Positions 10,864 through 40,581 of a DNA stretch of 64,000 nt are shown piece by piece. The position numbers were made by a program, and so were the translations under genes. The DNA is from Candidatus Latescibacterota bacterium (GTDB taxonomy: Bacteria > Latescibacterota > UBA2968 > GCA-2709665), in NCBI GenBank assembly GCA_965219455.1, contig OZ244744.1, positions 4,192,001-4,256,000 of the forward strand, read 5' to 3'. The number at the start of each line of letters is the position of its first letter. Position 1 is the stretch's first letter. The notes under the pieces were generated by a model. It saw nothing but the letters and a program-made list of their open reading frames with translations, was not told the origin of the DNA and made no database searches.

Positions 10864-10998
10864 CCCTCGTTAATCCCCGAATCTGTGAGATTCACTCCGG
10901 CGAACCATCCACGCTTCTCCCGGATGTGCGATGTCCGCGACCCGATTTGCAATGACTCGCACGGTACGCCAGGGTCTTGATAGACGGTAATCGGCGGG

Positions 10999-11730
10999 TC
11001 AGTTTTCTTCTTCCTCGCCGGCGTAGGTATGGCCGCCCAGGATTGCCCGGACTTCGGCGGCTGAAGAGGCGCTAAGCAGCGCCCCCATTCTTTCTTCCTC
11101 CTCCTCTTGCAGTGCACGGACGTTGTTGAGAACGGCTTCCAGTTTGTCGGAGGGGAACTTGCACGCGCCGTTTTCGTCCATGTGGACGATTTCGCCCGGC
11201 GCGACGTCCATCCCGCCTACAGAGACCGGAACATTGACGGCGTGTACCGCCATGCCGCCGTGCCCGGCGGTGACGCCGCTGAGCATGTACTGAAATTTCA
11301 TGGGCCGGATCTCGTCGATGTCCCTGGAGGGGCCGTTGGAGATGGCGCCCACGCAGCCGACCGCCTTCATTGCCGAGGTCATGTTTCCACCGGCCAGTCC
11401 GACCTTGGCCGCGAGTTCAGGCGGGAATTTCTGCTGGAAGACGAGGACCGTCGGTTTCGGAGACGCGTCCATGGCGTCGATCACGTCCAGAAACGACAGA
11501 GAGTTGTAGTCGGGGTCGGGCAGTCCGAAGACGCAGGTCACCGCGTAACCGACCGTGCGGCCCAGTTCGGGATACATGCACCGTATGGATTGGTCCGTAT
11601 ACCAGTTTTCCGTCCAGGGATTGTAGAGGCTCAGGCAAAGCGGGTCGCCGGGATAAGTGGCCACGACATTCGTGATTGACGGGGTGTCGAAATTTTTCAA
11701 TTCTTCCAGCATTTCCTGAGAGGTCGCCAT
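10999..11730 (-). CDS. RraA family protein (HMG/CHA aldolase-like)
   Basis: 'GRTVGYAVT', 'GGNM', 'NGPSRDIDEI', 'VAPGEIVHMDENG'. Confidence 0.85.
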   Translation of the reverse strand: MATSQEMLEELKNFDTPSITNVVATYPGDPLCLSLYNPWTENWYTDQSIRCMYPELGRTVGYAVTCVFGLPDPDYNSLSFLDVIDAMDASPKPTVLVFQQKFPPELAAKVGLAGGNMTSAMKAVGCVGAISNGPSRDIDEIRPMKFQYMLSGVTAGHGGMAVHAVNVPVSVGGMDVAPGEIVHMDENGACKFPSDKLEAVLNNVRALQEEEEERMGALLSASSAAEVRAILGGHTYAGEEEEN

Positions 11731-11811
11731 CTGGGACTCCTTCGGTTTTTTGCGGGATTAGTGTAAGTACGTCGATCCTTCCCTTCCCCATCGCGTGGGA
11801 CCGGTTCTGTC

Positions 11812-12627
11812 TTATCCTTCTCTGGGGAGGAGTTGCAGGGGCTGTACAATCCGGCGGCGCGCCGGCGTGAGTCTTTGCAGGAGTTCCGGTGACGGTTGAT
11901 AACCGTGGCGAAAGTTTCCCCATGAGGGTCCGTACCGGTAGACAACCACGCGCCGGGTACCCGGGTTGGACCGCCGGGCGGAGCCGTGTGAGATGCCGTC
12001 CACAAATAGAAGCGCGTCCCCCGCGGCCATTTGGATTTCGACGGCGCCTTCAATGCCTTCGACAGTGGCGTTTCTGGACATCCTGTGTCTGTCGAAGTTC
12101 GGGTGTTTGAAGTTGGATTTATGGCTTCCGGGGATGACCATGGTGCCGCCGTCACCGGGTCCGACGTCGGTAAGCGCAATGAGGATGTTGATCTGGCCAC
12201 ACATAAAGCGCCCGCCGTGGTAGCGGAACTGATTGCGCAAAATGGGCGGGTATCCACCGGAGTGCAGCCCGATGGCTTCGCCGGGTTCGCGAAAATTCGC
12301 GAAATTCTCGTCGATGAACAAGGGGCCGTGGTGGTAGTCGAAGCTGCCTTCGCCTCCCACAAAGCGCTTCACCTTTTCAAACCACGAGGGATGGTCGATC
12401 AGTTTCTCGAAGGGCTCCCCGGCTTCATAAATCTGCTGCAGGTTCAGTCCAGAGGTGTCGTCGCCGTAGGTGTGCGCCTGAATATGGCCGAACCACTCCC
12501 CTGGCCTGATTGGAGGTATTTCATCCAGGCAGGCATTGAGTTCCCCAACTTCCAACCGGGTGAGCGCGTTATTGAGATGTAGATAACCGCGAAGGTCAAA
12601 CAGGTACGTTGCCAGATCGATATCCAT
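11812..12627 (-). CDS. Phytanoyl-CoA dioxygenase (PhyH) family Fe(II)/2-oxoglutarate enzyme
   Basis: 'FDLRGYL', 'DGGTMVIPGSHKS', 'AGDALLF...SHG'; first metal motif is HSG. Confidence 0.85.
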   Translation of the reverse strand: MDIDLATYLFDLRGYLHLNNALTRLEVGELNACLDEIPPIRPGEWFGHIQAHTYGDDTSGLNLQQIYEAGEPFEKLIDHPSWFEKVKRFVGGEGSFDYHHGPLFIDENFANFREPGEAIGLHSGGYPPILRNQFRYHGGRFMCGQINILIALTDVGPGDGGTMVIPGSHKSNFKHPNFDRHRMSRNATVEGIEGAVEIQMAAGDALLFVDGISHGSARRSNPGTRRVVVYRYGPSWGNFRHGYQPSPELLQRLTPARRRIVQPLQLLPREG

Positions 12628-19681: not shown

Positions 19682-21436
<1,755 letters not shown>

Positions 21437-21483: not shown

Positions 21484-21508
21484 TCTTGATTGGCTGCAAG
21501 ACCTTTAT

Positions 21509-21583
21509 TCCGCTTCCCTACGCTGGCATAATCCAGATCAGGTTCCAAGGGTATGATCTCAGCCGTTCGGCACCCCACGCGGA
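21509..21583 (-). ncRNA. TPP riboswitch (THI element)
   Basis: Minus strand GGGGTGC..GGCTGAGA..ATACCC..GAACCTGATCTGGATTATGCCAGCGTAGGGAAG directly upstream of thiC; TTGACA-17-TATCTT promoter at 21623-21595. Confidence 0.95.
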
Positions 21584-21619
21584 TCTTACTATACAAGATA
21601 TAGGGGAAAAAGAAATCTG

Positions 21620-22504
21620 TCAAGGATGGAATTGCAGATCCGTCTGAGGACGCATCCGGACTTCGACTTCGAGCCGCGTCTTACCGCCGCCCTGACGGAC
21701 GCCGCGGGTGGGAGAGATGTCCAAATAGTCGCGTCCGATCGCGATCCGGACGTGTCGTTCGTCGGCAAGGCTCTGGTTGGTCGGATCGAAGCCCACCCAG
21801 CCGAGTTCCGGCAGCAGACACTCAACCCACGCGTGGGTGGCATTACTCCAAGCCTGGCCGTCGGGAGAGCCGGAGACGTAGAGATAGCCCGAGACATAGC
21901 GGGCGGGAACGCCCCAGGAGCGCGCGACCGCGATCATCACGTGGGCATAGTCCTGGCAGACTCCCCGGCCCGAATTCAGAATTTGCTCAATTGGAGACGC
22001 GGCCGATGTGCTTCCCGGAGCGTACTGAAATCTGCTGTGCAGTGTGTCTGAAAGTCTGATCAGGTCCCTGAGTGGGTCGTTTCCACGTGAAATGCCGTTC
22101 TTGTCCGTGAAATCGGCGAGTGCCGGCGACGGCTTCGCCATCGCACTGGGATGCATAAAGTCCCAATGTAGAAATGAAGCCTTCCAGGCGTCAATCTCCG
22201 TCCACGCGGCGGCTCCGAGTCCGGAAGGAAGCGACCTGAAGGGAGCCGGTCTTACGGTCGAGTGTGTGGCAATCTCCAGCGCTTCGTGCTCCCGGTGGAT
22301 GTTTAGAACGTGCCGCGTATTGCCAAAAGGATCCTTTTCGTCGTTTACGGCGCTCGGCGGTTTCGTTTCGATCTCGAAACGACCGAGTTGCTGACCCCCA
22401 TTTTCGAGCGGCTTCAGGCAAAGCAACATGACGCATTGCCGCGCGGGGGATTCGTACTGGTAGCGTGAGACGTGCCTGATTTCGTACTGGATGTTTCCGG
22501 ACAC
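21620..22504 (-). CDS. Transglutaminase-like protein (Bact_transglu_N + catalytic core)
   Basis: Catalytic triad motifs 'GVCQDYAH', 'THAWVE', 'GFDPTN'; N-terminal 'YEIRHVSRYQY'. Confidence 0.92.
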   Translation of the reverse strand: MSGNIQYEIRHVSRYQYESPARQCVMLLCLKPLENGGQQLGRFEIETKPPSAVNDEKDPFGNTRHVLNIHREHEALEIATHSTVRPAPFRSLPSGLGAAAWTEIDAWKASFLHWDFMHPSAMAKPSPALADFTDKNGISRGNDPLRDLIRLSDTLHSRFQYAPGSTSAASPIEQILNSGRGVCQDYAHVMIAVARSWGVPARYVSGYLYVSGSPDGQAWSNATHAWVECLLPELGWVGFDPTNQSLADERHVRIAIGRDYLDISPTRGVRQGGGKTRLEVEVRMRPQTDLQFHP

Positions 22505-22524
22505 GGTATGAGCACACCCGGGAA

Positions 22525-23511
22525 TCAGTCAACGACGGCGTAATCGATATAGGCGGCGGTCACAAGATCATGCAATTCCCGGCAGTAATCCATGAGGTTT
22601 TCGAGGAGGGCCTCATGGTCTTCGCGATCGGGCCAATCGTAATGGATCAGTGCGCACATACGTCTGGCCAGGCGCAAAGCTACAGCACTGGAATGCTCAT
22701 CGGACCCGGGACCGATGGCGTTGAGTTCCGCAGCCACCGCGTCGAGTGAGTAGCATAGAGAGCCGTGTAGAAGAGGGTCGGTGACGAGCAGATCGAGGAC
22801 CCGGGGCGGCTGAACGTCGACGCTATAATTGCGGCCGTAAGCATCAAACGCCTGGCAGACGTGCAAGAGGTTCGTCCAGTCCGCGTCGGAGGACTCGTCC
22901 ATCAGCTTGTCCATGGAGAGTTGAGAAAGAAACAACGAAGCCGAGCTCTGGGCGCGTTCGATACAACGCCCGAGTCGCAGGAAATGCCACCCTTCGTCGC
23001 GATACATCGTTGCTTCCGCCACGCCGGCAAACGTGTTGATGTCACCTGCCGTTTCTGCATAAAAGCTCTCCGGGGAGGTCTTCCAGATATCCCGAATGCT
23101 CAGCTTCCGGAGCCGCAGATACGCCAGGTTCAGACAGGTCCACATCTCCCCGCTGATGCAGTGGCGCATCTGCCGCGCATTCTCACGGCCGAGGGAGAAA
23201 CAATTCCAGACGGAATCCGGATTTGTGCGCTCGAAAGTGAGATCGTCGGCCAGCGTGTAGGAATCGGCCAGCGTGAAATCGTCGTTCCCGACCATCGCGA
23301 TGCTACCGCCGGGAGGCCGCCGATTCAGGCCCATGTAGATTCGACTCCATCCGAAATAGATCTCCCGGATTGGCCGATCAACCAGCGCTTCCACCTGAAA
23401 TCGCAGCAGGCGGCAGAGATGTTCCGCCCGGTCCAGGTAGCGGCCCATCCAATAAAGGCCCTGCGCGCTGCGCGAGAGGAGTCTGGGATTTCCAGGATTC
23501 GTTGTCATCAA
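22525..23511 (-). CDS. Alpha-E domain protein (DUF403)
   Basis: 'LSRSAQGLYWMGRYLDRAE', 'RENARQMR', 'LGRCIERA' ER-repeat signatures. Confidence 0.9.
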   Translation of the reverse strand: MMTTNPGNPRLLSRSAQGLYWMGRYLDRAEHLCRLLRFQVEALVDRPIREIYFGWSRIYMGLNRRPPGGSIAMVGNDDFTLADSYTLADDLTFERTNPDSVWNCFSLGRENARQMRHCISGEMWTCLNLAYLRLRKLSIRDIWKTSPESFYAETAGDINTFAGVAEATMYRDEGWHFLRLGRCIERAQSSASLFLSQLSMDKLMDESSDADWTNLLHVCQAFDAYGRNYSVDVQPPRVLDLLVTDPLLHGSLCYSLDAVAAELNAIGPGSDEHSSAVALRLARRMCALIHYDWPDREDHEALLENLMDYCRELHDLVTAAYIDYAVVD

Positions 23512-24893
23512 TCCTCATCAGCTTCTTCCGGTGTGAGTACGAATTCGGGGTATGCCTCCATTCTCAGTTCCCCCACATCCTGCCCCAGCCGCTCGACCTT
23601 GTCGGACACGCGGACGCTCAGGGTCGCGTCCAAAAGGCGCCACAATACCCACGAAGTCAAAAACACGAACGCGCCAACCGCTACGATACCCAATAGTTGG
23701 ACGCCGAAGTTGCCGCCTGCGGCGATGCAGACCGCCAGCGTTCCCCAGATGCCGGCGAAGAGGTGGGCAGGTACCGCACCGACGACGTCGTCGATTTTCA
23801 ACCTCTCCAGCAGCCGGATTCCCAGCGTGCAGAAGATGGCGCCCACGCCGCCGATAATAATCGCCCAATAATGTTGGACGATGTCGGGACCGGCAGTTAT
23901 TGACACCAGCCCCGCAATCGCTCCGTTCAGGCTGGCGAACAGGTCCATTCGGCCGAGGATGGGTTTGGAAACGACAAGCGCTACCACCACGCCGGCAGAC
24001 GCCGCGAGATTCGTGTTGACCAGCACATGGCTCATAGCCACCGCATCGGCGGCGCTCCCCAACGCCAACTGCGACCCGCCGTTGAAACCGAGCCAACCAA
24101 ACCAGAGGATGAACACGCCCAGCGTTACCGCGACGATATTGGACGGCGGGGTGGCCTTTATTGAGCCGTCTTTCCGGAATTTCCCCAACCTTGGCCCTAC
24201 CACCAGTGCGCCCGCAAGCGCCGCCCATCCGCCGGTGCTGTGAACAATGGTCGAGCCGGCGAAATCCTTGAATCCCATTGCACTCAACCACCCTTCGCCC
24301 CAGGTCCAGGCGCCCACCACGGGGTAGATGACAGCCGTCAGGACCAGCGTGAACAAAAAGAAGGACCACATCCTGACCCGTTCCGCCAACGCGCCGGAGA
24401 CAATCGAGGCGGCCGTCGCCACAAAAACCATCTGGAAGAACCAGTCGGACATGGTGGAATATTTGTTGGCGATAACCTTGGCCTTCGCCGTTTCCTGACC
24501 CGCTACGAGGGCGAGATCGGCGGCAGACGGACCGTAGAGGAGTTTAAATGAGCCGATGAACTTCCCGACTTCCGTATACATCAAATTGTAACCGATGAAG
24601 TAATAGGCGAGCCCCGCTATCGAGTAAAGACCTATGTTCTTCATGCAGATCATCCCGGCGTTCTTGGTGCGCACCGAACCGGATTCGAGCATTGTGAACC
24701 CGGCACACATCCACATAATCAGCGCGCCCCAGATCAGAAACGCGAAGGTGTTGAAGACGAACATGGTCTCCTGGTCAATCGCCGCATACGCGGCGGTGGT
24801 CCCGCAAAGCAGACAGCCGAGCACCAGCAGAGCGATTCTCCCCGAGGAACCGCCGACGCGCTTGTGAAATGGAACTTTCGTGGAACCTTTCAT
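23508..24893 (-). CDS. amtB: Ammonium transporter (Amt family)
   Basis: 'FFQMVF', 'DFAGSTIVHSTGG', 'WFGWLGFNGGS', 'IDDVVGAVPAH' (twin His conserved); ATGA overlap with the alpha-E gene. Confidence 0.95.
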   Translation of the reverse strand: MKGSTKVPFHKRVGGSSGRIALLVLGCLLCGTTAAYAAIDQETMFVFNTFAFLIWGALIMWMCAGFTMLESGSVRTKNAGMICMKNIGLYSIAGLAYYFIGYNLMYTEVGKFIGSFKLLYGPSAADLALVAGQETAKAKVIANKYSTMSDWFFQMVFVATAASIVSGALAERVRMWSFFLFTLVLTAVIYPVVGAWTWGEGWLSAMGFKDFAGSTIVHSTGGWAALAGALVVGPRLGKFRKDGSIKATPPSNIVAVTLGVFILWFGWLGFNGGSQLALGSAADAVAMSHVLVNTNLAASAGVVVALVVSKPILGRMDLFASLNGAIAGLVSITAGPDIVQHYWAIIIGGVGAIFCTLGIRLLERLKIDDVVGAVPAHLFAGIWGTLAVCIAAGGNFGVQLLGIVAVGAFVFLTSWVLWRLLDATLSVRVSDKVERLGQDVGELRMEAYPEFVLTPEEADED

Positions 24894-24967
24894 GCCTTCT
24901 CCTTTCGTGGTTTTTCCACAACGATGAGATGCGTGGTCTACCTGACAGATGTCACGAATGCGTCTGC

Positions 24968-26401
24968 TCAGTTTCCCAGGACCCAGAGGTCTTTGCCGCC
25001 GCCGCCCTGACTGGAATTCACGACGAGGCTGCCTCGGCGCAAGGCGACACGGCAGAATGCCCCGGGCACGATTCGCGTCTCCCTCCCGTGCAGCACAAAT
25101 GGACGCAGGTCAACGTGCCGCGGCTCAAACCGGTCGTCGGCAAGACACGGCGCACGCGACAGCGGCAGGACCGGTTGCGAAATGAAGTCAGCCGGGTTGG
25201 CGCGCAACTGCGTGGCGTACTCCCGGCGTTCCGTCGGTGTGGCGTGGGGGCCGACCAGCATGCCGTAACCGCCAGACTCTCCGACACGCTTTACAACCAG
25301 TTTTTCGAGGTTGTCGAGTGTGTACTCGAGGTCTTCCGGCCTGCGGCACAGGTAGGTCTCTACGTTGGCCAGAACGGGCTCTTCACCCAGGTAGTAGCGT
25401 ATCATGTCGTGAACGTAGGCATAGACGCTCTTGTCGTCGGCCACACCTGTTCCGGGCGCGTTCACGAGGGTCACATTGCCAAGTTTGTAGGCGTGCAATA
25501 TGCCAGGTACACCAAGCAGCGAATCCGCGCGAAAGACGAGGGGATCGAGAAAGTCGTCGTCGACACGTCGGTAAATCACGTCGACGCGCCGGAGGCCGGT
25601 GGTGTTGCGCATGTAGACAAAACCGTCGTTCACGAGGAGATCCCGACCCTCTACCAGTGCAGCTCCAATCTCGCGGGCCAAAAACATGTGTTCGTAGAAA
25701 GCCGAATTGTAGACGCCAGGCGTCAGCAGCACGATGCATGGGTCGGACCGCCCCCCCGGAGCAAGCTCTACAAGGGTTTCGCGCAGCAACCTGCCGTAGT
25801 GTTCCACATCCTGTACGCGCGAACGTCTGTAAAGGCGGCGAAGACTTGCCTTCACCGCTTTGCGGTTCGCTACCATATACGAGACACCCGACGGAACGCG
25901 AAGGTTGTCTTCAAGTACAAGAAAGCCGTCGTTGGTGCGCACGAGGTCGGTTCCGCAGATGGATACCCAGGCGCCATGAGGAGGAGAGGCGCCACGCATT
26001 TCGACCCTGTATTGCGGACAGCCCCTTACCATGTCCCTCGGAATGACACCGTCTTCGATGATGCGTGCGTCATTATATATATCTTGAAGAAAGCGATTCA
26101 GGGCGGCGAGGCGCTGTGTGAGGCCCTTGACGAGCTGGCGCCACTCGGCGCCCGATAAAATCCTCGGAAGGCAGTCGACGGGAATGATGCGTTCAGTGGC
26201 CTCCTCATCGTCGTAAACGGTAAAGGTGATGCCTTCATTTGAAAACGAGCGCGTTACCCGTTCCTGGATGCTTGATAGTTCCTCCACCGAGAGCTCGCTC
26301 AGCGCTTCGAAAAGCGGACGGCAATGCTCCCTGGGAGTACCGTCCGAAAGGAACATCTCGTCGTAAATGGCTGGATCAAGGCCGTAGGTATCAAATTCCA
26401 T
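24968..26401 (-). CDS. Circularly permuted type 2 ATP-grasp protein (putative peptide ligase)
   Basis: 'LEDNLRVPSGVSY', 'IYRRVDDDFLDP', 'GTGVADDK', 'VVNSSQGGGGKDLWV'. Confidence 0.93.
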   Translation of the reverse strand: MEFDTYGLDPAIYDEMFLSDGTPREHCRPLFEALSELSVEELSSIQERVTRSFSNEGITFTVYDDEEATERIIPVDCLPRILSGAEWRQLVKGLTQRLAALNRFLQDIYNDARIIEDGVIPRDMVRGCPQYRVEMRGASPPHGAWVSICGTDLVRTNDGFLVLEDNLRVPSGVSYMVANRKAVKASLRRLYRRSRVQDVEHYGRLLRETLVELAPGGRSDPCIVLLTPGVYNSAFYEHMFLAREIGAALVEGRDLLVNDGFVYMRNTTGLRRVDVIYRRVDDDFLDPLVFRADSLLGVPGILHAYKLGNVTLVNAPGTGVADDKSVYAYVHDMIRYYLGEEPVLANVETYLCRRPEDLEYTLDNLEKLVVKRVGESGGYGMLVGPHATPTERREYATQLRANPADFISQPVLPLSRAPCLADDRFEPRHVDLRPFVLHGRETRIVPGAFCRVALRRGSLVVNSSQGGGGKDLWVLGN

Positions 26402-26606
26402 GGCAACAGTGTATGTGATTGCAGCTTCGTTTTGATAAGAGCAGCGTTACGTGCCGAAAGAACGGGTTAAGTCTTGCCCAGCAGCCTGCTCGATGCCCAT
26501 GTTCGGCAGATGACCGCGGCCGAGAGTGCGGATCCTGTCGCGTCGATAGGAACCAGGCGATCTCATAGGTCCGCAAACGGGGCTGCGCGGGTTTCTCGTA
26601 ATGACT

Positions 26607-28808
26607 TCAGGGCGCATCCCCATCGGTGGTTTCCTCCGGCACCAATTCGGGAGCTTCCAGGGGTATTTCGACAACCATCTCGGTAAATTCGCCGGGATCG
26701 GTTTCGACCCGAATGCTGCCTCCGTGCTCTCGCACAATATCGTTCGAAAGTGCAAGACCGAGCCCTGTTCCCTGGTCGGTGGGCTTGGTCGTGAAAAATG
26801 GGTTGAAAATCTTGTCGACGACGTCGGGCGGAATTCCGTTTCCATTATCCTTGATACGTACCTCGAGCCGTTCCGATCCACGTCGGGTCGTCAACCAAAG
26901 CGTAGGCATGTATGGCGCTTTATTGTTGTCCGGTTGTTCATTTCCGCGCCGTTTTTCGTCGGTCGCGTGGCAGGCATTACTAACCATGTTCAGGAACACG
27001 CGGCCCATATCCTGAGGGATCACCTCGACGTCGCCCGTGGACGGGTCCAGATCCTGTTTGATGTCGAGTTGGAAATCCGGGTCGCTCGCCCTTACGCTGT
27101 GGTAGGCAAGCCTGGCGTGTTCGTCGAGCAGGTTGTTTATATTGGTGGGCTGTCGCTGTGCCGAACCCCGTCCCATCGATAGCATGTCCTGAACGATCCG
27201 GTTGGCACGCTCGCCGTGTTCGCGGATGCGTTCGAGGTTGTCGGTGAGGTCCTGGCAGATTTCCTTGATGAGTTCCCGTTGTTCTTCGTCCAGATCTCCT
27301 GCCTCCTCGCTGAGCATCTCCTGGAGCTCCTCCCGGAGTTCTTCCAACAGTTCCACGGAGACCTCCGAGAAATTCTTGACGAAATTCAGCGGGTTCTTGA
27401 TCTCGTGTGCGACCCCGGCGGTCAGTTCGCCGAGCGCCGCCAGTTTTTCGCGCATCACAATCTGGTCCTGCGCCCGCCGGAGGTCCGCGAGCACGGATTC
27501 GAGTTGTTCGTTTTTTTCCCGCAACTCCTCGGCCAGCTTTTCGACGAGGTTCAGGCGCTGGACTTCCAGGGCATGTCGCCGGAATACCTCCAGCGCCGCC
27601 GCCATATCGGCGACCTCGTCGTTGCCGCTGATATCGACCCTGGCTTCCAGGTCGCCATCGGCCATACCTCGCATCCTGTTCGACAGGCGTTCGAGCCGGC
27701 GCAACAACACCCGACCAACAAAAAGCCACGCGATCAGCACGGCTCCGGTGATGCTGACCACGTTCAGTCCAAGCAGAACACTGCGTCCGGTCCCGATCGC
27801 CTGGGTGGATGCCCGCGTGGCCTCTTGCGTCCGCTCCCGGGCCGCACTGACGAGACCCTCGACTTCAGTGCCGAGTTTGATTTCGAGGTTCAGGTTGTCC
27901 TGGAGGAGGTTTCGCTGCCGCTCGGCGAGCGCGAACTCACGAACGATCAGTTCGAAACCACCCTGTTCACCCAGACCCAGCTCGAACAGCCGGTTCAGGT
28001 GCGGGGCGATTTGATCGCGCCATGGCGATGTACCCAGGGCCGACAAGCTCCGCTCGATACGCCCGGCAGCAGCCTCAAAACGCTCCCGCAGCGGTTCCAG
28101 CAGGAGGGCGTCCGACAGATTGAATGAACTTGACAGGAGCTGTGTCGCGATGGTGGCATCGGCCTTTAAATCGGCCAGGTGGCGGTACCGATCGAATTCA
28201 TCATTTGAAAAATGCCGCTCGCGGGGCGCGGGCGGCTGGCCTATTGTACGATAGCCTGTCATCGCGTAGAAGAGTTGATCGTCGATGGCCGGAATCAGCA
28301 TGCCAAACAATTTGCCCCGCAAATTGGACAATTCCGCACGCAGTGCTTCGCTGCGCGCGCTGACCTCGAACAACTCGGAGACCTCCCGCTCGATGGCTTC
28401 GATGTTGGACGTGAGCGCGGCGGCATAGTCGTGAATTCGTCTGTAACGCTCCTCGCCTTCTTTCCTGATGTCCCTGTGCATCAGGGCTGCCAACAGTGTT
28501 TCGAAGGCCCTGCGCTCTTCGGCGATATCTGCCTTGACGCGGACGAAGTCATCCACCGTTGACGCCGAGGTCAGACGGGGTGCAGCGGCGACCAGAGTAC
28601 CACTCTGCCGGGCGACTCCAAAGGCGGTGGCCATTTCCGGCACGCTACCCTCGTTAACACGGTTCTGGATGTCGCCCACGAGCTCGAATGAGAACCACCC
28701 GACCATACTGGCGACCATGGTTATGGCAACGGCGCCTCCGATTCCCAGATAGAGTTGCGTGGCGATGCGGAAGCGGCCCTCGAGCAGATGTTTCAGCGTA
28801 CGGATCAC
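26607..28808 (-). CDS. Membrane sensor histidine kinase (TorS-like periplasmic domain, HAMP, HisKA, HATPase)
   Basis: Two TM segments flanking a long helical domain; HAMP 'DEVADMAAAL'; H-box 'AHEIKNPL'; N, G1, F and G2 boxes 'DNGNGI..FFTTK..GTGLGL'. Confidence 0.92.
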   Translation of the reverse strand: MIRTLKHLLEGRFRIATQLYLGIGGAVAITMVASMVGWFSFELVGDIQNRVNEGSVPEMATAFGVARQSGTLVAAAPRLTSASTVDDFVRVKADIAEERRAFETLLAALMHRDIRKEGEERYRRIHDYAAALTSNIEAIEREVSELFEVSARSEALRAELSNLRGKLFGMLIPAIDDQLFYAMTGYRTIGQPPAPRERHFSNDEFDRYRHLADLKADATIATQLLSSSFNLSDALLLEPLRERFEAAAGRIERSLSALGTSPWRDQIAPHLNRLFELGLGEQGGFELIVREFALAERQRNLLQDNLNLEIKLGTEVEGLVSAARERTQEATRASTQAIGTGRSVLLGLNVVSITGAVLIAWLFVGRVLLRRLERLSNRMRGMADGDLEARVDISGNDEVADMAAALEVFRRHALEVQRLNLVEKLAEELREKNEQLESVLADLRRAQDQIVMREKLAALGELTAGVAHEIKNPLNFVKNFSEVSVELLEELREELQEMLSEEAGDLDEEQRELIKEICQDLTDNLERIREHGERANRIVQDMLSMGRGSAQRQPTNINNLLDEHARLAYHSVRASDPDFQLDIKQDLDPSTGDVEVIPQDMGRVFLNMVSNACHATDEKRRGNEQPDNNKAPYMPTLWLTTRRGSERLEVRIKDNGNGIPPDVVDKIFNPFFTTKPTDQGTGLGLALSNDIVREHGGSIRVETDPGEFTEMVVEIPLEAPELVPEETTDGDAP

Positions 28809-29986
28809 GGCACCGTGTCCTGGAGCGTCTCGATCGGATAGTAGCGGCCGTCACGACCGATCATGGTCAAGAAAACGGCATCCGACCCCTGATTGTCCTG
28901 GCTGCCATATAGCAGTTCAAATCCGTCTATATCGACGATTCTGGTACTGCGGAGGCTGTTGAGAAAGGAAGCCCGGCTGACCTCCGCACCACAGCGTTCG
29001 AGGGTGGCGATGGCGAGGCGGCCGGCCAGGTACCCTTCGAAGGAAACGAACCCGGGAACAGCATCGGAATCGAAGGCCGACAGAGCCCGGCGGTAGGCAG
29101 ACGCAACGGGGAAGTCGTCGTCGGTTGGAAACGGTACGACCTGAGTGACATAGACGCCGGCTCCGGCGCCACCCAACTGCCTGGCGAGTGCGTTGCTGCC
29201 CACGAAAGAGATGGTAATGAAAACGGGGTCCATACCGATGTTTCGGGTCCATGCGATAAAGGTCGCAACCGGTTCATACGCGCCAACCAGGATCACCGCC
29301 TCGGGGTTTGCCATGCGAAGGTCGAGCAGTGCCGTTTTCACCGCCGTTGTGTTGCGCGGATACAACCCCACTGCAACGGCCTCCATGTTACGCCGTTCGA
29401 GTGCGCGTCGCGCGCCGTGGTACCCGGCCCGGCCGAAGGAATCGTCCTGGTACAAGACGGCGATGCGCTTTATACCGAGGTCGCCGGTCAGCCGCGCGAC
29501 CATCTCCTCCGTCTCCTGGTTGTACGAGGCTCTCAGGTTAATCACATTTTTCCACTTTGGGTCCCGAAGGAACGCCGCACCGGTGAAGGGGGCGATATAG
29601 GGGATATTGGCCTCGGCGGCGATCGGGGTGGCTGAACGCGACGTCGGTGTTCCCACGGCGCCGATAAGCGCGAACACCTCTTCCTCTTTGATGAGGGTGA
29701 GGGTGTTCGCGATCGCCGCTTCCGGCTCGTACGCGTCATCACGAGACACGAGTTCCAACCGACGTCCGTGGACGCCGCCGCGCCGGTTGATCTCGTGGAA
29801 CGCGGATTCGATCCCGCGTTTCATGTCCGTGCCGAGTTGCGCAGCCGGGCCGCTGAAGGCGGCGGATTGACCGAAGAGAATGCGCTGGTCGGAGACGCCC
29901 GTTTCCACCTCGCGGCCGTGTGCGGCTGTAAAAAGCGCCGTCCACACGGCGAAAAGCAGCACGGCCTGATGAAGCGTCCACCTCAT
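28805..29986 (-). CDS. Periplasmic substrate-binding protein (LivJ/Peripla_BP_6 family)
   Basis: Signal peptide; 'FGQSAAFSGPAA.LG', 'GGVHGRRLEL..DDAYEP', 'VGTPT'; 4-nt overlaps with both neighbours. Confidence 0.9.
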   Translation of the reverse strand: MRWTLHQAVLLFAVWTALFTAAHGREVETGVSDQRILFGQSAAFSGPAAQLGTDMKRGIESAFHEINRRGGVHGRRLELVSRDDAYEPEAAIANTLTLIKEEEVFALIGAVGTPTSRSATPIAAEANIPYIAPFTGAAFLRDPKWKNVINLRASYNQETEEMVARLTGDLGIKRIAVLYQDDSFGRAGYHGARRALERRNMEAVAVGLYPRNTTAVKTALLDLRMANPEAVILVGAYEPVATFIAWTRNIGMDPVFITISFVGSNALARQLGGAGAGVYVTQVVPFPTDDDFPVASAYRRALSAFDSDAVPGFVSFEGYLAGRLAIATLERCGAEVSRASFLNSLRSTRIVDIDGFELLYGSQDNQGSDAVFLTMIGRDGRYYPIETLQDTVP

Positions 29987-30402
29987 TCCGACCTCCGTTT
30001 GACCAGCGTCAGGTGATTCCGTTCTTTCTCCCGCTTATAGTGCATTTCGTCCATCATTGTAAGTACCAGGTGAATGCCGAGTCCCCCGATAGGTCGATCC
30101 TCGATCCCCGCTTCCAGATCCGGTTTTGGGGCGTCAGTTAAGGGGTTGAAGGGCCGGCCGTCGTCCGCGATCTCGATTGTGATCGCGTCGTCGTCTGAGG
30201 TAAACGTGATTTCAATTACGCCAGGACCGCCGTCGAGACCATGTCTGACGATGTTATTTCCGATTTCCTCTATGGCAAGGTCAACCTGGTGTACCACCGC
30301 GGGCGACCAATTTTCCTGCAGCCCAATGTCTTCGGCGGCGGCGGCGACCTGTCGCAGTTCGTCGAGGTTGGCCTCGATCCGAAAGGATTGCTTCATGCTC
30401 AC
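29983..30402 (-). CDS. RsbW-like anti-sigma factor / Ser kinase (HATPase_c_2)
   Basis: 'EEIGNNIVRHG', 'DDGRPFNP', 'GGLGIHLV..MMD'. Confidence 0.9.
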   Translation of the reverse strand: MSMKQSFRIEANLDELRQVAAAAEDIGLQENWSPAVVHQVDLAIEEIGNNIVRHGLDGGPGVIEITFTSDDDAITIEIADDGRPFNPLTDAPKPDLEAGIEDRPIGGLGIHLVLTMMDEMHYKREKERNHLTLVKRRSE

Positions 30403-31568
30403 GTGTCCGTCCCCCTGTAGCGAAACGTAACGCAGGTTATATCGTCGAACTGAGGGGTGTCTCCCACAAAACCCGTCACGGCACTGAAGATCGCTCCGTT
30501 GGCGCCGCCGGCGTCCTGCGGGGGCGCATCCACAAAGACGTTTCGAAGGCGTTCGACCCCGAATTCTTCCTCCACGTCGTTGATGGCTTCGGTGACGCCA
30601 TCTGTATAAAGAACAACCGTATCGCCGGGTGCGAGCGTCACCGAATTGTATACGTATTCGATGTCCGGCAACATTGCAAGGGCGATGCCGCCCGTGAGGG
30701 GGAGCATGGTCGCCTGTCCGTCCGCGTTGACGATAAGCGGCGAATTGTGCCCGCCGTTGGCGTAAACGAACTGTCGATTCACGGGATCGAATACAGCATA
30801 AAACACGGTGACGAACATCGCGGCTTCGTTATTCTCGCAGAGTGAGTTGTTCACTTCGAAAAGGACCTCTCCGGGATTGGCGGTCCCGATTGCAGCACCT
30901 CGAAGTACCGTCCTGCTCGACATCATGAAGAGCGCCGCGGGCACCCCCTTGTCCGAGACATCGGCGATTGCGATGCCGATGCGACCGCCGTCGAGTCGGA
31001 TGATATCGAAGAAATCACCGCCGACGTTGCGAGCGGGTTCCATGCTCCCATATATCTGGTAATCGCGATTCTCGGGAAACCGTGTGGGTAGAATCGACTG
31101 CTGCATTTTACTGGCAACGTCTAGTTCGTTCTGTAACGCTATCAGCTTGTCGCGGGATTCGAGCGCCTCCCGCCACTCGATCAGATGACGCATCGTTCGA
31201 TCGATGGTCACCTGCAGGTCCGAGAAGTCTATGGGCTTGGTGACGAAGTCGAACGCGCCGCGGTTCATTGCGATCCGGATATTTTTCATATCCCCGTACG
31301 CCGAAATTATTACGGAACGGATATTCGGATCCACCTTGGGGATTTGCTCGAGCAACGTAAGGCCGTCCATCTGGGGCATGTTGATGTCGGAGAGCACCAT
31401 ATCGATGCTATCGTCTTCATTCAACCGCTCGAGCGCTTCTATGCCGTTACGGGCAAAAACGAACGTGTAGCGGCCCCTGCGAATGGCGCGTCGCATACGC
31501 TGCAACATGAGCGGTTCGACGTCGGGCTCGTCGTCCACGACCAGGATCTTATATGGGAACGCTGACAT
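30399..31568 (-). CDS. Response regulator receiver + PP2C/SpoIIE phosphatase (RsbU/RsbY-like)
   Basis: 'ILVVDDE..LSDINMP..FVTKP' receiver; 'VGGDFFD', 'IADVSDKG', 'YTDGVTEA', 'DDIT' SpoIIE motifs. Confidence 0.93.
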   Translation of the reverse strand: MSAFPYKILVVDDEPDVEPLMLQRMRRAIRRGRYTFVFARNGIEALERLNEDDSIDMVLSDINMPQMDGLTLLEQIPKVDPNIRSVIISAYGDMKNIRIAMNRGAFDFVTKPIDFSDLQVTIDRTMRHLIEWREALESRDKLIALQNELDVASKMQQSILPTRFPENRDYQIYGSMEPARNVGGDFFDIIRLDGGRIGIAIADVSDKGVPAALFMMSSRTVLRGAAIGTANPGEVLFEVNNSLCENNEAAMFVTVFYAVFDPVNRQFVYANGGHNSPLIVNADGQATMLPLTGGIALAMLPDIEYVYNSVTLAPGDTVVLYTDGVTEAINDVEEEFGVERLRNVFVDAPPQDAGGANGAIFSAVTGFVGDTPQFDDITCVTFRYRGTDT

Positions 31569-31900: not shown

Positions 31901-33571
31901 TCACTGCGTAGTCTCGTCGTCCAACTGCTTCAACTCGTCGGCGATTTCATCCATCAGGATTACGAGGTCGACAACATCATGGCTGGTTATAGTACCCAGG
32001 AACCTGTCTGATTCCTCATCCTGGACCGGTATCACGGACAATGAATGACGCGACATCTCCTGAAGAACGTCTTCGATGGGCTCGTCGGGGACGGCATAAG
32101 GCGGGTCCGGGCGCAGCACATTTCGGAGGGGTGTGTCCGCCCAGGATCCCATGGGAACAGACGTCAGCCGCGCTGGAGACACGATCCCCGCGACGGCGCC
32201 TTTGTCGACCACGACGTAGTCCTGTTGATCCGGCACGATCCAGTCATCGGCAAAACTTCTGATCGACAGTGTTGCTTCGGGATAGGTCCGGGACGGGTCC
32301 AGTACGTGACCGGCTGTAATGTCGTCCAGCGCGCGCCGCGCGAAGGACGTCGGCACGACTTCTGGCGGCGTGGGGCGGTGGGTCAGGCGCGCTCTGGTGA
32401 CCGCCGCGGAGATTGCCAGTGGCATCAGCACGATATAGCCGAGCATTGCAAGCACGACCACCGAGAACACTTCCTGTCCGATCACGCCGTTTTCGAGGAG
32501 TACAAGCAGAAGCGCGATCTCTGCCACGCCCTTGGCCATCAGTCCGGCCGCCTGCGCGTAGGGTTTGTCGAGGCGAGCCACGTAGGCACCGATGAACGCG
32601 CCCGCGAACTTTCCCGCCGCGGGAATCGTTAGTATCGCGACAATGGTCGCCAAAGGCAGAGACAAAAAAGAAAAGTCCAGGCGCAAGCCCGCCGAGGCGA
32701 AAAAAAGTGGTACGAACAGGCCCTCTGCTGCGCTTCGAATGCCCGGCATAACGTCGTTGCGCACCTGACGCGGCAGGCCCGACAGGGCCGCGCCGAAAAG
32801 CAGGGCGCCGAGGGATCCGTGAAGGCCTATTTCCTCGGCCACGACGACCATTAAACACAGACCGCCAATCAGCAGACCGAACGACAACTCGGGTACGTTA
32901 AAGAATCGTTTCAAAAAGAGAATCGTCGTCGGCATGATTCTTGCGGACAGAATCCATGCCACGACCGCGAAAGCCGCGACCTCCGCCAGCAGAAACACCA
33001 CACTGACGGCACCCATGAAATGGTCGTGTGCGCCAATGGTACGCTCGCCGATGCTGAACCCGACCACCAGGAGCGTGATCATCTCGGCGATAATGACCGT
33101 TGTGAAGATCTCGAGCCCGAGTGGTTCTTTAAGATACCCCTTGTCTGCGAGTACCTTTGCCACAAGTCCCATGCTTGACATCGACAGGATGCCGGCGAGC
33201 GCCAGTGCATCCTTAAAATGGAGTTCGAGGGCAAAATTCACCCCGAACAGGTTCGACGTGACCACCATGGCCGCAAACATGGAGATCACAACAGACAGTG
33301 TGGCGGCACAAAAAAAACGCCCGCGGATGGTTGCCACGAAGCCGGGGATGTCGATCTCGTCGAGACCGACAAGGAAGAAGAGGATAAAGACGCCAATACC
33401 CAGGAAGACCTGAAGCTTGCTCGTCGGTTCAATGATCCCGGCGACGGGTCCGAGCAGGATACCGGCCGCCGTGTAGGCCACGATCGAACTCAAGCCAATC
33501 CGGTCGAGGAGGCATTCGAGGAGTTTGGCTACGACGATGAGCAACCCGATCGGCAGCAGGTTTTCGATCAT
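31901..33571 (-). CDS. Cation:proton antiporter (CPA2/KefB-like) with C-terminal CBS pair
   Basis: About 12 TM helices, 'AGILLGP', 'LFVPLFFASAG', 'GKFAG'; C-terminal CBS-like 'VVVDKG..AGIVS' and 'IPVQDE...LGTIT'. Confidence 0.85.
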   Translation of the reverse strand: MIENLLPIGLLIVVAKLLECLLDRIGLSSIVAYTAAGILLGPVAGIIEPTSKLQVFLGIGVFILFFLVGLDEIDIPGFVATIRGRFFCAATLSVVISMFAAMVVTSNLFGVNFALELHFKDALALAGILSMSSMGLVAKVLADKGYLKEPLGLEIFTTVIIAEMITLLVVGFSIGERTIGAHDHFMGAVSVVFLLAEVAAFAVVAWILSARIMPTTILFLKRFFNVPELSFGLLIGGLCLMVVVAEEIGLHGSLGALLFGAALSGLPRQVRNDVMPGIRSAAEGLFVPLFFASAGLRLDFSFLSLPLATIVAILTIPAAGKFAGAFIGAYVARLDKPYAQAAGLMAKGVAEIALLLVLLENGVIGQEVFSVVVLAMLGYIVLMPLAISAAVTRARLTHRPTPPEVVPTSFARRALDDITAGHVLDPSRTYPEATLSIRSFADDWIVPDQQDYVVVDKGAVAGIVSPARLTSVPMGSWADTPLRNVLRPDPPYAVPDEPIEDVLQEMSRHSLSVIPVQDEESDRFLGTITSHDVVDLVILMDEIADELKQLDDETTQ

Positions 33572-33777: not shown

Positions 33778-34122
33778 CTAACCTCCGACCGCTGCCAGCG
33801 CTTCGGACCGGGAGGCGTAAACCGGTATAATTTTGTCGAACCCGCTGATCTCGAAGACCTCCCTGATTGGTTCCGAGAGCGAACAGACCACGAATTCCTT
33901 TTCTGACTTCCGAAGCGTCCTGGCGGTCAGCAGAATGACCCGAAGGCCCGCGCTGCTTATATATGAAAGCCCTTCGAAATCCACAATCACGGCTCGCCCG
34001 TCTTCGTGCTGGGTGATTGCGGAATCGAGCGCTTCCTCGAACTCACGGGCATTGGACCCGTCGACGCGACCCTCGGCCTTCGCGATCAAGGTGCCGTTGT
34101 CCCGTTCGGTGTTAACCTCCAT
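33778..34122 (-). CDS. STAS-domain anti-anti-sigma factor (RsbV-like)
   Basis: 'GRVDGSNA', phosphoacceptor motif 'YISSAGLRV', 'EVFEISGF'; AAGGAG RBS. Confidence 0.93.
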   Translation of the reverse strand: MEVNTERDNGTLIAKAEGRVDGSNAREFEEALDSAITQHEDGRAVIVDFEGLSYISSAGLRVILLTARTLRKSEKEFVVCSLSEPIREVFEISGFDKIIPVYASRSEALAAVGG

Positions 34123-38077: not shown

Positions 38078-40526
38078 CTATTGCGCTTCGATGGCCGCCG
38101 TAACGATCTCGCCGTTCAGTATGACGTGAAGGCCGGGATCGAGCGGGTTGTTAAGCACGACGTCTAAATCACGCGCACGCGTGATGCTGGTCAGATCCGA
38201 TTCGGCCTCCTTCAGTGCCAATGAGAGCGCCTGATCATTTACGGTAAGTTGCAGCCGTTTCAGGGGTGCGCTGAGTGAGAGATTGGCGTTGCTCTTGTAA
38301 CGTCGGACCGCAGTGGCGATCTCAACCAGGAGGTTGCCATTTGTTTCGGCGCGTTCGTCTAAAAATCGCGGGTTCACGGACGGCCAGGTGGAGATGTGGA
38401 TGGATTCACCGTTCTCTGCGAACAGTCCAACGTAGATCTCTTCGGTTACGTAAGGCAGAAACGGCGCAAAGAGGTGGATGCAGGTTCGAAGCACGTGGCT
38501 GAGTGTATATTGCGCACCACCGGTTCCGATCCCGGTCTCGTCATACAGACGCCGCTTGGCCATTTCAAGGTAGTTGTCCGCCAGGTCTCGCCAGAAGAAG
38601 GTTTCGGTTTCACTCCTGGCGAGAGCGTATTGATAGTTTTGGAAAAAGCCGGTTGCCCGATCGATAAGGCGTTGTGTCCGCGCCAGGATCCAGCGGTCCG
38701 CGGGGGTCAGGAGTGGAGGTTCGACTGGAGTGCGGTATCCTTGTAGAAACCGTTCGCTGAAGCGGGCCACATTCCAGAGTTTGGTGACCAGTTTGTGACC
38801 GGCCTGGATTCTTTCTTCGCTGATTACCGTGTCTTTGCCGAATCCCGTTCCGGCCGCCCAATAACGCACGGCGTCGGCGGAATATTTCTCGATTATGTCT
38901 ATCGGCGCGGCCGGTCCGCCTCCTCGGCTCTTGCTGATTTTCCCCGTGCCTTCCGGAGCCAGGCCCCATCCGGAAATGCATATTTCCTTCCAGGGTATCT
39001 GTCCAAAATGGTGGTGAGATTTGACAATGGTGTAGAAAGCCCAGGTCCGAATGATTTCGTGTGACTGGGTGCGCATGGACATGGGGTAGACGTCCTGATA
39101 GAGCTCGTTGTCGCATAACCAACCTGCCGCGATTTGAGGACTGAGCGATGAAGTAGCCCAGGTGTCCATAACGTCCGTATCGGCTACCCAATCGTTGGCG
39201 CCGCAAGTACACCTTGCACGCGGGCAGGTTTCGAGCGGGTCCAATGGCAGTTCGGCTTCTGGCGCCACGGTGATCTTACCGCAGCCACCGCAATACCACA
39301 CCGGAAACGGGATGCCAAAATGGCGTTGGCGGGAGATACACCAGTCCCCAGTGCAGGTTTTCGATCCATTCAATGTAACGGGCTTTCATGTGCGGGGGAT
39401 GCCACCTGATATCTTCGCCCAGTTCGAGCCAACGGCTTTTGAAGTCAAGGACACGGATGAACCACTGCGGAGCGACGATGTATTCCACCGGCGTGTCGCA
39501 GCGATCGTGGACCCGAACGGACTGAGGTGCGGGCCGCCTGTCCACCATCAAGCCGCGTTCATCGAGTGTCTTCACGATCTGTCGTCTGGCTTCGGACACG
39601 GAAAGGCCTTCGAGAATGCCGGAACCCGCGGTCATCCTGCCGTTCCTGTCGATGGCGGAGACCAGCGGCAGGTTGTGTGAACGCCACCAGGCCACGTCCG
39701 CAGCGTCGCCGAAGGTGCAGCACATCACAGCGCCCGTGCCTGTTTCGGGATCCGCCCCTGTATCCTGCAGTACGGGCACATGATGGCCATAAAGGGGGAC
39801 TGAGACATTGCGGCCGATGAATGAACTATAGCGTTCGTCACTTGGATGGACGAAAATCGCCGCACATGCGGACAGAAGTTCCGGCCGGGTGGTGGCGATC
39901 GGCAGTGACATGCCCCCTTCAAGGTGGAAGTGCACGGTGACGAATTCACTCTCCCGTTCAATTTCGTTCAGTTCGGCCTGTGCGATTGCGGTTCCGCATT
40001 CCGGGCACCAGATAGCCGGCGCCTTTTTGCGGTAGACCAGTCCTTTGTCTAACAGGTCTATAAATGACTTCTGTGCAATGCGGCGGGCGGTGTCGCCCGC
40101 TGTGCGATAGGTATGTGACCAATCGACCGAAAGCCCCAGGCGAAGCCAGAGGTTCTCGTATTCGCGTTCAATGGCTTCACCGTGGTACATGCATTTTTCG
40201 ATAAACGCCTGACGGCCGAGTCCCGATGCGCTTGTTCCAAGGCGTTTTTCCACCAGGCGTTCGGTGGGGAGACCGTTGTCGTCATACCCCATCGGGTAGA
40301 AGACGCGCCGGCCGTTCATTCGCCAGAAGCGAGCCATGAAGTCGGCATGGCTATAGGAGTAGACGTGACCCATGTGGAGTTTTCCGGACACGGTCGCAGG
40401 AGGCGTGTCGATGGCGTACACGGGGCCTTCGGCCAGCCTTTCGAATTTGTAGATGTCCGACAGTCGCCAGCGCGCCTGAAGGCGAAGCTCTGTTTCCTGT
40501 GGGCGATATCGTTTGGATGAGGCCAT
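38078..40526 (-). pseudogene. valS: Archaeal-type (short) valine--tRNA ligase split by a single +1 frameshift
   Basis: 'IDTPPATVSGKLHMGH' (HIGH), 'DWCISRQR', 'DTWATSS', 'KISKS' (KMSKS); an extra G in TGG-G-GAC (plus-strand CCCC at 39346-39349) breaks ENLHW|DWCISRQR. May be a sequencing error. Confidence 0.88.
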
Positions 40527-40581
40527 TCTGATTCTCCCGGGAGGAAAATTCAACTCTTCGATTCCATAGATTTCGTTCCTC

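Follow-up and report, generated by a model that had tools for sequence, protein, structure and literature searches.

A triad of genes coding for a CP-ATP-grasp ligase, an Alpha-E protein and a transglutaminase-like protein is known across many bacterial phyla, and Valas and Bourne in 2008 and Iyer et al. in 2009 reportedly dealt with it as the triad of the 'Anbu operon'. In this study, we analysed a triad of this kind in a stretch of 64,000 nucleotides from a Candidatus Latescibacterota bacterium (assembly GCA_965219455.1, contig OZ244744.1, positions 4,192,001 to 4,256,000; hereafter the window), in which the gene of an ammonium transporter of the Amt family stands between the ligase gene and the Alpha-E gene. 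Two reports describe the ATP-grasp, Alpha-E, transglutaminase and Anbu genes as an operon of unknown function, record no stable complexes among the proteins of the Yersinia operon, and state that nitrogen limitation up-regulates the Anbu-operon genes in Pseudomonas putida (PMC5666114 and PMC6376114, citing Hervas 2008); one of them adds that the Yersinia ATP-grasp homologue liberates phosphate from ATP (PMC6376114). In Burkholderia cenocepacia, the genes I35_5080-83 (DUF404/407, DUF403 and two transglutaminase genes) were lowered 6- to 9.4-fold in an ntrC mutant (-8.2, -9.4, -9.4 and -6.0) and are listed as NtrC/sigma-54 targets (PMC5491218), and in marine metagenomes the triad domains are reported to co-vary with urea-metabolism domains (PMC3597751). 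The literature searched contained no description of the triad together with an ammonium transporter. On balance, we lean towards reading the four genes as the output end of a co-regulated nitrogen-scavenging module, in which Amt and the triad would be joined through a shared signal rather than through mutual action.

The four genes lie on the minus strand in the transcription order ATP-grasp (24968-26401, 477 amino acids), Amt (23508-24893, 461 amino acids), Alpha-E (22525-23508; the open reading frame (ORF) matched by Pfam is 22525-23511) and transglutaminase (21620-22504, 294 amino acids, with a cysteine-protease fold). Pfam confirmed all four and with them the order given in the preliminary description, which had been made from the sequence alone. 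The spacer between the ATP-grasp and Amt genes is 74 bases long (24894-24967) and has a strong ribosome-binding site, AAAGGAGAAGG, at its end (24895-24905); the gap between the Alpha-E and transglutaminase genes is 20 bases. No strong terminator-like site was seen between any two of the four genes. The end of the operon is marked by a sigma-70-like promoter site (21623-21595) and a thiamine pyrophosphate (TPP) riboswitch (21498-21587; RF00059, 75 bits against a gathering score of 54.3), both serving thiC (19682-21406), and a terminator-like hairpin lies at 21483-21458; all of these are on the minus strand. Before the operon, Rfam revealed neither a glutamine riboswitch nor any other known RNA, and a scan of 24850-26700 gave no match at E ≤ 1. 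Neither Anbu nor another proteasome-family gene is present at the locus, as had been noted earlier: the next gene is thiC, and the three PF00227 matches are 1.2-1.9 Mb distant. The locus thus has the three Pfam families of the Anbu operon in their usual relative order, but it differs in having Amt between the ligase and Alpha-E and in lacking an Anbu gene.

All three enzymes of the triad belong to the families first assigned to them. The ATP-grasp protein gave full-length matches to CP_ATPgrasp_2 (PF14403, E 4.9e-154) and CP_ATPgrasp_1 (PF04174, E 2.4e-138), and its closest solved chain is 3n6x, a 'putative glutathionylspermidine synthase' (E 3.4e-160). Alpha-E matched positions 1-293 of the 294 in PF04168 (E 4.9e-64). 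The transglutaminase-like protein carries Bact_transglu_N (PF08379, E 7.8e-20) and Transglut_core (PF01841, E 4.4e-23) and has a solved relative in 3isr, a 'putative cysteine protease' (E 2.8e-11). The genome holds a single copy of the ATP-grasp gene and a single copy of the Alpha-E gene. The AlphaFold2 model of Alpha-E is all-helical (mean predicted local distance difference test score 88.7), and fold searches gave no functional lead: the best Foldseek match in the PDB had an E of 0.065 at a template modelling score of 0.27, a wide VIA-align search gave at best a Z of 10.6, to helical membrane proteins and in a range common for helical bundles, and the Alpha-E profile had no match below E 0.4 among PDB sequences.

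The Amt and Alpha-E genes overlap. The preliminary description had placed the overlap in an ATGA at 23508-23511; the overlap stands, and the letters are different. The coding strand reads TTGA at 23511-23508, within TTGATGA, with the Amt stop codon being the TGA at 23510-23508, and Alpha-E could start either at TTG 23511, with a 4-base overlap, or at ATG 23508, with a 1-base overlap. Each of the 10 loci read from the genus and its sister genus has, like the window, TGATG or TAATG at this junction. Since two of these 10 loci carry CTG instead of TTG, the start that is conserved is ATG 23508. The spacer before Amt also holds, at about 24921-24934 (minus strand), a stretch that is conserved in part, CAC-N3-TCTCATC. 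Several loci of the genus and 10 out of 10 loci of the sister family have it 25-45 bases 5′ of the Amt start, and it is kept whether the upstream gene is the ATP-grasp gene, as in this family, or a histidine kinase gene, as in the sister family (loci L006-L014 and L182-L191). It could serve as an Amt-specific promoter, operator or RNA element.

Four metatranscriptome runs were examined as contigs only, and stretches without coverage were not interpreted. One run, labelled 'sponge metagenome', yielded pieces at least 99% identical over the transglutaminase, Alpha-E and ATP-grasp genes. The Amt/Alpha-E junction is bridged by contigs from relatives in X18 (1,351 bases) and X19 (1,758 bases), and the Alpha-E/transglutaminase junction by a contig of 893 bases in X18, all at 91-93% identity. 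One further contig joins the end of the ATP-grasp gene to the start of Alpha-E without Amt and corresponds to the split form of a third genus described below. The bridging contigs are consistent with co-transcription and no more.

The preliminary description suggested a metabolic coupling of transporter and enzymes. In such a coupling, imported NH4+ would be the nucleophile, or its assimilation product the substrate, of an ATP-grasp/Alpha-E ligase; the ligase would make an amide or peptide nitrogen store, which the transglutaminase-like enzyme would later hydrolyse. At least four genera of the phylum, and one genome from a different phylum, have Amt and the triad close together in a single row. 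The overlap of the Amt and Alpha-E genes is conserved, ATP-grasp enzymes make amide bonds via acyl phosphates, and the Yersinia homologue liberates phosphate from ATP (PMC6376114). Nevertheless, we regard direct coupling as unlikely, given what became of the triad in the close relatives and how seldom the triad and this Amt are found together in the wider surveys.

The arrangement is not unique to this genome. Among 41 relatives (15 genomes of the genus, two of the sister genus and 24 others), 17 have an Amt domain no more than about 75 bases from an Alpha-E domain, namely 15/15 of the genus, 2/2 of the sister genus and 0/24 of the others. In the 10 loci read with tblastn, the row of exchanger, PP2C, RsbW-like, binding-protein, kinase, ATP-grasp, Amt, Alpha-E, transglutaminase and thiC genes is conserved. 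In genome G011, from one species of the genus, all three triad genes are frameshifted or interrupted, with the seven other genes of the row whole and Amt 94% identical. In G013, from a second species of it, two deletions have cut the ATP-grasp gene to its last 26 codons or so and Alpha-E to its first 84 and have removed the transglutaminase gene; Amt (90% identical) and its upstream spacer are intact and stand directly behind the kinase gene. The decay of the triad around an intact Amt argues against models in which the transporter needs the enzymes, direct coupling among them, and indicates that the triad, unlike Amt, is dispensable in these two species. In a third genus of the family the row is split: locus L015 has the ATP-grasp, Alpha-E and transglutaminase genes without Amt, and in L018 Amt is preceded by a frameshifted ATP-grasp stub (residues 24-89 at 68% identity). 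A second type of triad was noticed in the sister family, with ATP-grasp and Alpha-E fused in one ORF of 848-877 amino acids that is followed by the transglutaminase gene (L016 16036-18669 and L019 4033-6579).

To survey the triad more widely, an ATP-grasp alignment was run against one genome per species of the GTDB collection, and the best 80 of at least 603 stretches were taken with flanks of up to 7 kb. Alpha-E directly follows ATP-grasp in 74 of these 80 loci; the window differs in that Amt intervenes. Amt was found between ATP-grasp and Alpha-E in none of the 80 and in the flanks of only one, L030 of Vicinamibacterales, with the order ATP-grasp, Alpha-E, Amt. Conversely, in the best 80 of at least 550 metagenome stretches encoding relatives of this Amt, no triad gene lies in the flanks, and Pfam identified neither PII nor a triad gene among 49 neighbouring ORFs at 13 of the closest Amt loci. 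The placement of Amt within the triad is thus conserved in the genus and its sister genus and is rare elsewhere, and 79 of the 80 triad loci from outside the phylum have no Amt within their flanks, which again speaks against direct coupling. The ATP-grasp proteins of loci L022-L035, which record titles assign to Dehalococcoidia, Binatia, Spirochaetia, Vicinamibacterales, Alphaproteobacteria and Poriferihabitaceae, are 69-82% identical to that of the window. This is far above what is expected between phyla and suggests that this triad subtype has spread horizontally; a transglutaminase gene is missing from several of these loci.

Within the phylum, 151 genomes were searched with thresholds of E ≤ 1e-120 for the Amt clade, E ≤ 1e-100 for the kinase orthologue and E ≤ 1e-20 for Alpha-E, which were found in 62, 64 and 67 genomes, respectively. 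Amt and the kinase occur together in 61 genomes, Amt alone in one and the kinase alone in three, and in 53 of the 61 no more than 3.5 kb separates the two genes. Amt is the next gene after the kinase in the sister family, where the ten loci read have some 45 bases between the two. All 17 genomes of one genus in a third family have both genes, arranged tail to tail at a distance of about 420 bases, and the sole locus fetched from that genus (L200) has a STAS gene immediately behind Amt. Of the 67 genomes with Alpha-E, 21 have it no more than 1.6 kb from this Amt and the other 46 have it apart. Five of the 21 represent two genera of the third family, with Alpha-E about 1.5 kb past Amt; four of these five loci were fetched (L196-L199) and read RsbW-like, STAS, Amt, ATP-grasp, Alpha-E and transglutaminase, with identities to the window of 79-80% for ATP-grasp and 70-75% for Amt. 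In one of them, L199 (G103, 10958-12440), the ATP-grasp gene is in two overlapping pieces with its first third missing, and this is possibly another decaying triad. Three orders of Amt and triad are therefore known, with Amt before, inside or after the triad by lineage. The separation of Alpha-E and Amt in 46/67 genomes and this variable order count against direct coupling, and the latter is more readily explained by co-regulation than by Amt and Alpha-E being coupled in a fixed way.

It could be argued instead that the arrangement is neutral, an Amt/ATP-grasp swap or a single insertion of Amt in the ancestor of the family having been inherited as mere order, with nothing but a transcript shared. 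The exact order ATP-grasp, Amt, Alpha-E is indeed limited to two related genera and was met in 0/80 loci elsewhere, and the third genus has split the genes again, as seen from the ATP-grasp stub before Amt in L018 and the Amt-less triad in L015. However, Amt-triad adjacency recurs in other gene orders and in another phylum, and the cassette described below stands beside each partner separately in several lineages. Given that adjacencies of Amt, triad and cassette recur in this way, more than one inherited accident is involved, and we consider the neutral explanation highly unlikely.

The steadier companion of this Amt clade is not the triad but a signalling cassette upstream of the operon. On the minus strand of the window, the cassette comprises, in the direction of transcription, a STAS anti-sigma-antagonist-type protein as its first signalling gene (33778-34122; PF01740 E 7e-19, TIGR00377 E 1e-23), a receiver-PP2C (SpoIIE) phosphatase (30399-31568; Response_reg E 4.8e-24, SpoIIE E 6e-50), an RsbW-like serine kinase/anti-sigma-type protein (29983-30402; HATPase_c_2 E 5e-30; E 1.4e-11 with the NCBIfam RsbW model, under its cut-off), a periplasmic binding protein of the LivK/UrtA type (28805-29986; Peripla_BP_6 E 1.3e-57, and weak hits to NCBIfam models of binding proteins for branched-chain amino acids and urea) and a membrane histidine kinase (26607-28808) in which Pfam recognized a TorS-like sensor, HAMP, HisKA and HATPase_c domains and residues 208-442 matched the NCBIfam TorS model TIGR02956 with 158 bits. 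A Na+/H+ exchanger with CBS domains (31901-33571) lies between the STAS and receiver-PP2C genes. The cassette genes mostly overlap one another (the kinase and binding-protein genes by 4 bases), and 205 bases separate the cassette from the ATP-grasp gene. The set for partner switching, PF01740 with PF13581 and PF07228, is complete within 4.2 kb of a single strand. A further lipoprotein of about 500 amino acids, whose C-terminal part is a LivK/UrtA-type binding domain, was observed between the kinase and ATP-grasp genes in six loci of the genus (e.g., L007, L008, and L009) and is absent from the window. In the triad survey, the cassette or its partner-switch half stands beside the triad in six of the 80 loci (in full in L023, L028, L032, and L035, in part in L030 and L049), which by record title belong to Binatia, Dehalococcoidia, Alphaproteobacteria and Vicinamibacterales and are Amt-less except for L030. 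The pairings of cassette with Amt, cassette with triad and Amt with triad therefore each occur separately.

Cascades in which a receiver-PP2C protein governs partner switching are known in RsbK-RsbY-RsbV-RsbW of Bacillus cereus and HsbR-HsbA of Pseudomonas. The cassette resembles them in having a STAS protein, an RsbW-like kinase, a receiver-PP2C phosphatase and a dedicated histidine kinase, but differs in that its kinase is accompanied by a periplasmic binding protein, as in TorT/TorS, that there is no sigma-factor gene nearby, and that its conserved neighbours are Amt and the triad. It also sets this locus apart from proteobacterial triads, whose context is NtrC/sigma-54. Partner switching together with an ammonium transporter was likewise not described in the literature searched. 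A sigma-54-type promoter before the ATP-grasp gene was considered by eye and dropped, as the GGCACG...GC stretch is wrongly spaced and the region is poorly conserved.

The transporter itself is a bona fide member of its family (PF00909, E 3.2e-99, with the domain ending at residue 448 of 461), with a cleavable-looking signal peptide and a canonical C-terminal region. It scored 510.2 bits with the NCBIfam model TIGR03644, 'probable ammonium transporter, marine subtype', just under the cut-off of 514 and over all of the profile (positions 1-404 of 404, E 3.4e-153), and a low 115 bits with the NCBIfam AmtB model. Residues F157, W198, D210, H218, W267, F270, S274 and H377 are invariant among 25 relatives; by the E. 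coli numbering, these eight correspond to the Phe gate, Trp/Ser site, Asp and twin histidines of AmtB. Its nearest relatives among solved structures are the ammonium receptors Sd-Amt1 (8qpf/8qj3, E 1e-67) and Ks-Amt5 (6eu6, E 4e-54), which raised the possibility that this Amt is a receptor. The published N1/N2 signature of ammonium receptors (AmR) is QX6EX15NX2D[F/T]X54-60TX2[S/T], and AmR members without a fused transducer exist (PMC11152129). A regular expression for this signature found no match in Amt, where C, L and Y replace the Q, D and F/T of the signature (C...E...N..L-Y), and the protein has no fused cytoplasmic transducer domain. The receptor possibility was lowered after the signature failed, and since the signature is not present, we treat Amt as a transporter, a signalling role being a minority possibility. 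As for Sd-Amt1 and Ks-Amt5 (PMC11152129 and PMC5764959), there is a genomic tie of Amt to signalling proteins; here, however, these are encoded by separate genes, with neither a receptor signature nor a fused transducer. Co-folding of Amt (residues 38-460) with Alpha-E from separate alignments scored 0.00 in both runs and is uninformative either way.

PII is a near-universal nitrogen signal protein. As stated in the preliminary description, no glnK lies beside amtB, and a search of the whole genome, a single contig of 5.84 Mb, likewise gave no PII gene (0 matches to PF00543) and no GlnD uridylyltransferase domain. One PII-like tblastn match, obtained with four PII proteins of relatives (E 0.003), was antisense to an epimerase gene and was set aside as chance. 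PII (PF00543) is absent from all 15 genomes of the genus, at least five of which are single contigs, versus its presence in 26/26 genomes of the eight other genera of the order that were searched, with 1-4 copies each. The genome contains three glutamine-synthetase loci and three Amt genes, which are mutually 25-28% identical, the operon Amt being 27-28% identical to the other two. One of the latter (398484-399761 of G000:C1) has a glutamine synthetase gene (394999-396021) on its own strand at a distance of about 2.5 kb. Compared with the AmtB-GlnK pair, in which a PII protein plugs the ammonium channel, this is an Amt family member with all pore residues, but it has no adjacent glnK, no PII in its genus, and a score at the edge of the TIGR03644 'marine subtype'.

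Given that PII is found in 0/15 genomes of this genus versus 26/26 in the other genera, and that this genome has no GlnD domain, it is tempting to suppose that the partner switch controls Amt, with the STAS protein or the kinase/phosphatase pair acting on the cytoplasmic face in place of GlnK; alternatively, Amt may be an ammonium receptor that feeds the switch, and the triad a co-regulated passenger. The STAS gene as immediate neighbour of Amt, behind it in one genus (L200) and ahead of it in two (L196-L199), the adjacency of Amt and kinase in 53/61 genomes, the receptors Sd-Amt1 and Ks-Amt5 as nearest solved relatives and the low score with the AmtB model all point this way. However, Amt has neither the AmR signature nor a fused transducer and has kept all of its transport residues, and the genera that bear PII show the same Amt-cassette linkage, indicating that the cassette is not simply a PII replacement. 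We therefore think this control rather unlikely, although it can hold alongside the reading of the four genes as a co-regulated module.

In the co-regulated module that we favour, a GlnK-independent Amt, probably of the marine subtype, would import NH4+, and the triad would be a cytoplasmic set of amide-bond ligase and hydrolase useful under nitrogen stress. The triad would have been joined to Amt through a signal common to both rather than through any action of one on the other. The periplasmic binding protein would report an external nitrogen compound to the TorS-like kinase, which would control the receiver-PP2C phosphatase; the phosphatase would set the phosphorylation state of the STAS protein against the RsbW-like kinase, and this phospho-switch would govern Amt and, where present, the triad. 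We infer the control of the operon by the cassette, nitrogen status as the signal and the product of the triad, the steps from cassette to operon being drawn from gene neighbourhoods alone. The preliminary description had linked the cluster to nitrogen, and this agrees with the conserved placement of Amt and with the nitrogen induction of the triad in the papers cited above. Its further suggestion that the enzymes act on or depend on the transporter was not supported, in view of the decay of the triad beside an intact Amt in G011 and G013, the 79/80 outside triad loci without Amt and 0/80 Amt loci with a triad gene, and the fact that it is the cassette that most steadily accompanies this Amt clade.

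Several points weigh against the favoured reading. The nitrogen-starvation induction of the triad was reported for other bacteria. None of the ORFs scanned between 6 and 46 kb of the window showed a sigma-factor domain, a genome-wide search not having been made, and no conserved promoter or operator was found 5′ of the ATP-grasp gene, in a region that is poorly conserved in the genus. The contigs from RNA libraries are no proof of one transcript, as such libraries may include DNA. The counts are drawn from related genomes and reflect few independent events. Finally, the one-base overlap of the Amt stop and the Alpha-E start is strictly conserved across two genera, and this would fit a need for fixed stoichiometry too.

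Elsewhere in the window, a class-I aminoacyl-tRNA synthetase gene was observed to be split into two overlapping ORFs on the minus strand (38078-40553). The ORF at 39276-40553 covers positions 3-228 of tRNA-synt_1, and that at 38078-39373 covers positions 229-412 and an anticodon-binding domain. A frameshift, a fault in the assembly or a genuine split could account for this.

In summary, the triad and its tie to nitrogen are already known, and the new variations are the Amt inside the operon, the shared cassette and the PII-less genus. Each independent nitrogen tie of the triad narrows the search for its product. The transporter side may matter more: a genus with genomes of 5-6 Mb and no PII keeps this Amt beside a phospho-switch, which points to a control of ammonium uptake not found described in the literature searched. 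A bolder proposal, and a doubtful one, is that a PII-independent circuit of binding-protein-fed kinase, receiver-PP2C, RsbW-like and STAS proteins controls this Amt in the phylum, with the phosphorylatable STAS protein acting on or reading the channel in the fashion of GlnK and the triad as a second output. If true, this circuit would be the main ammonium-control device in this PII-less genus.

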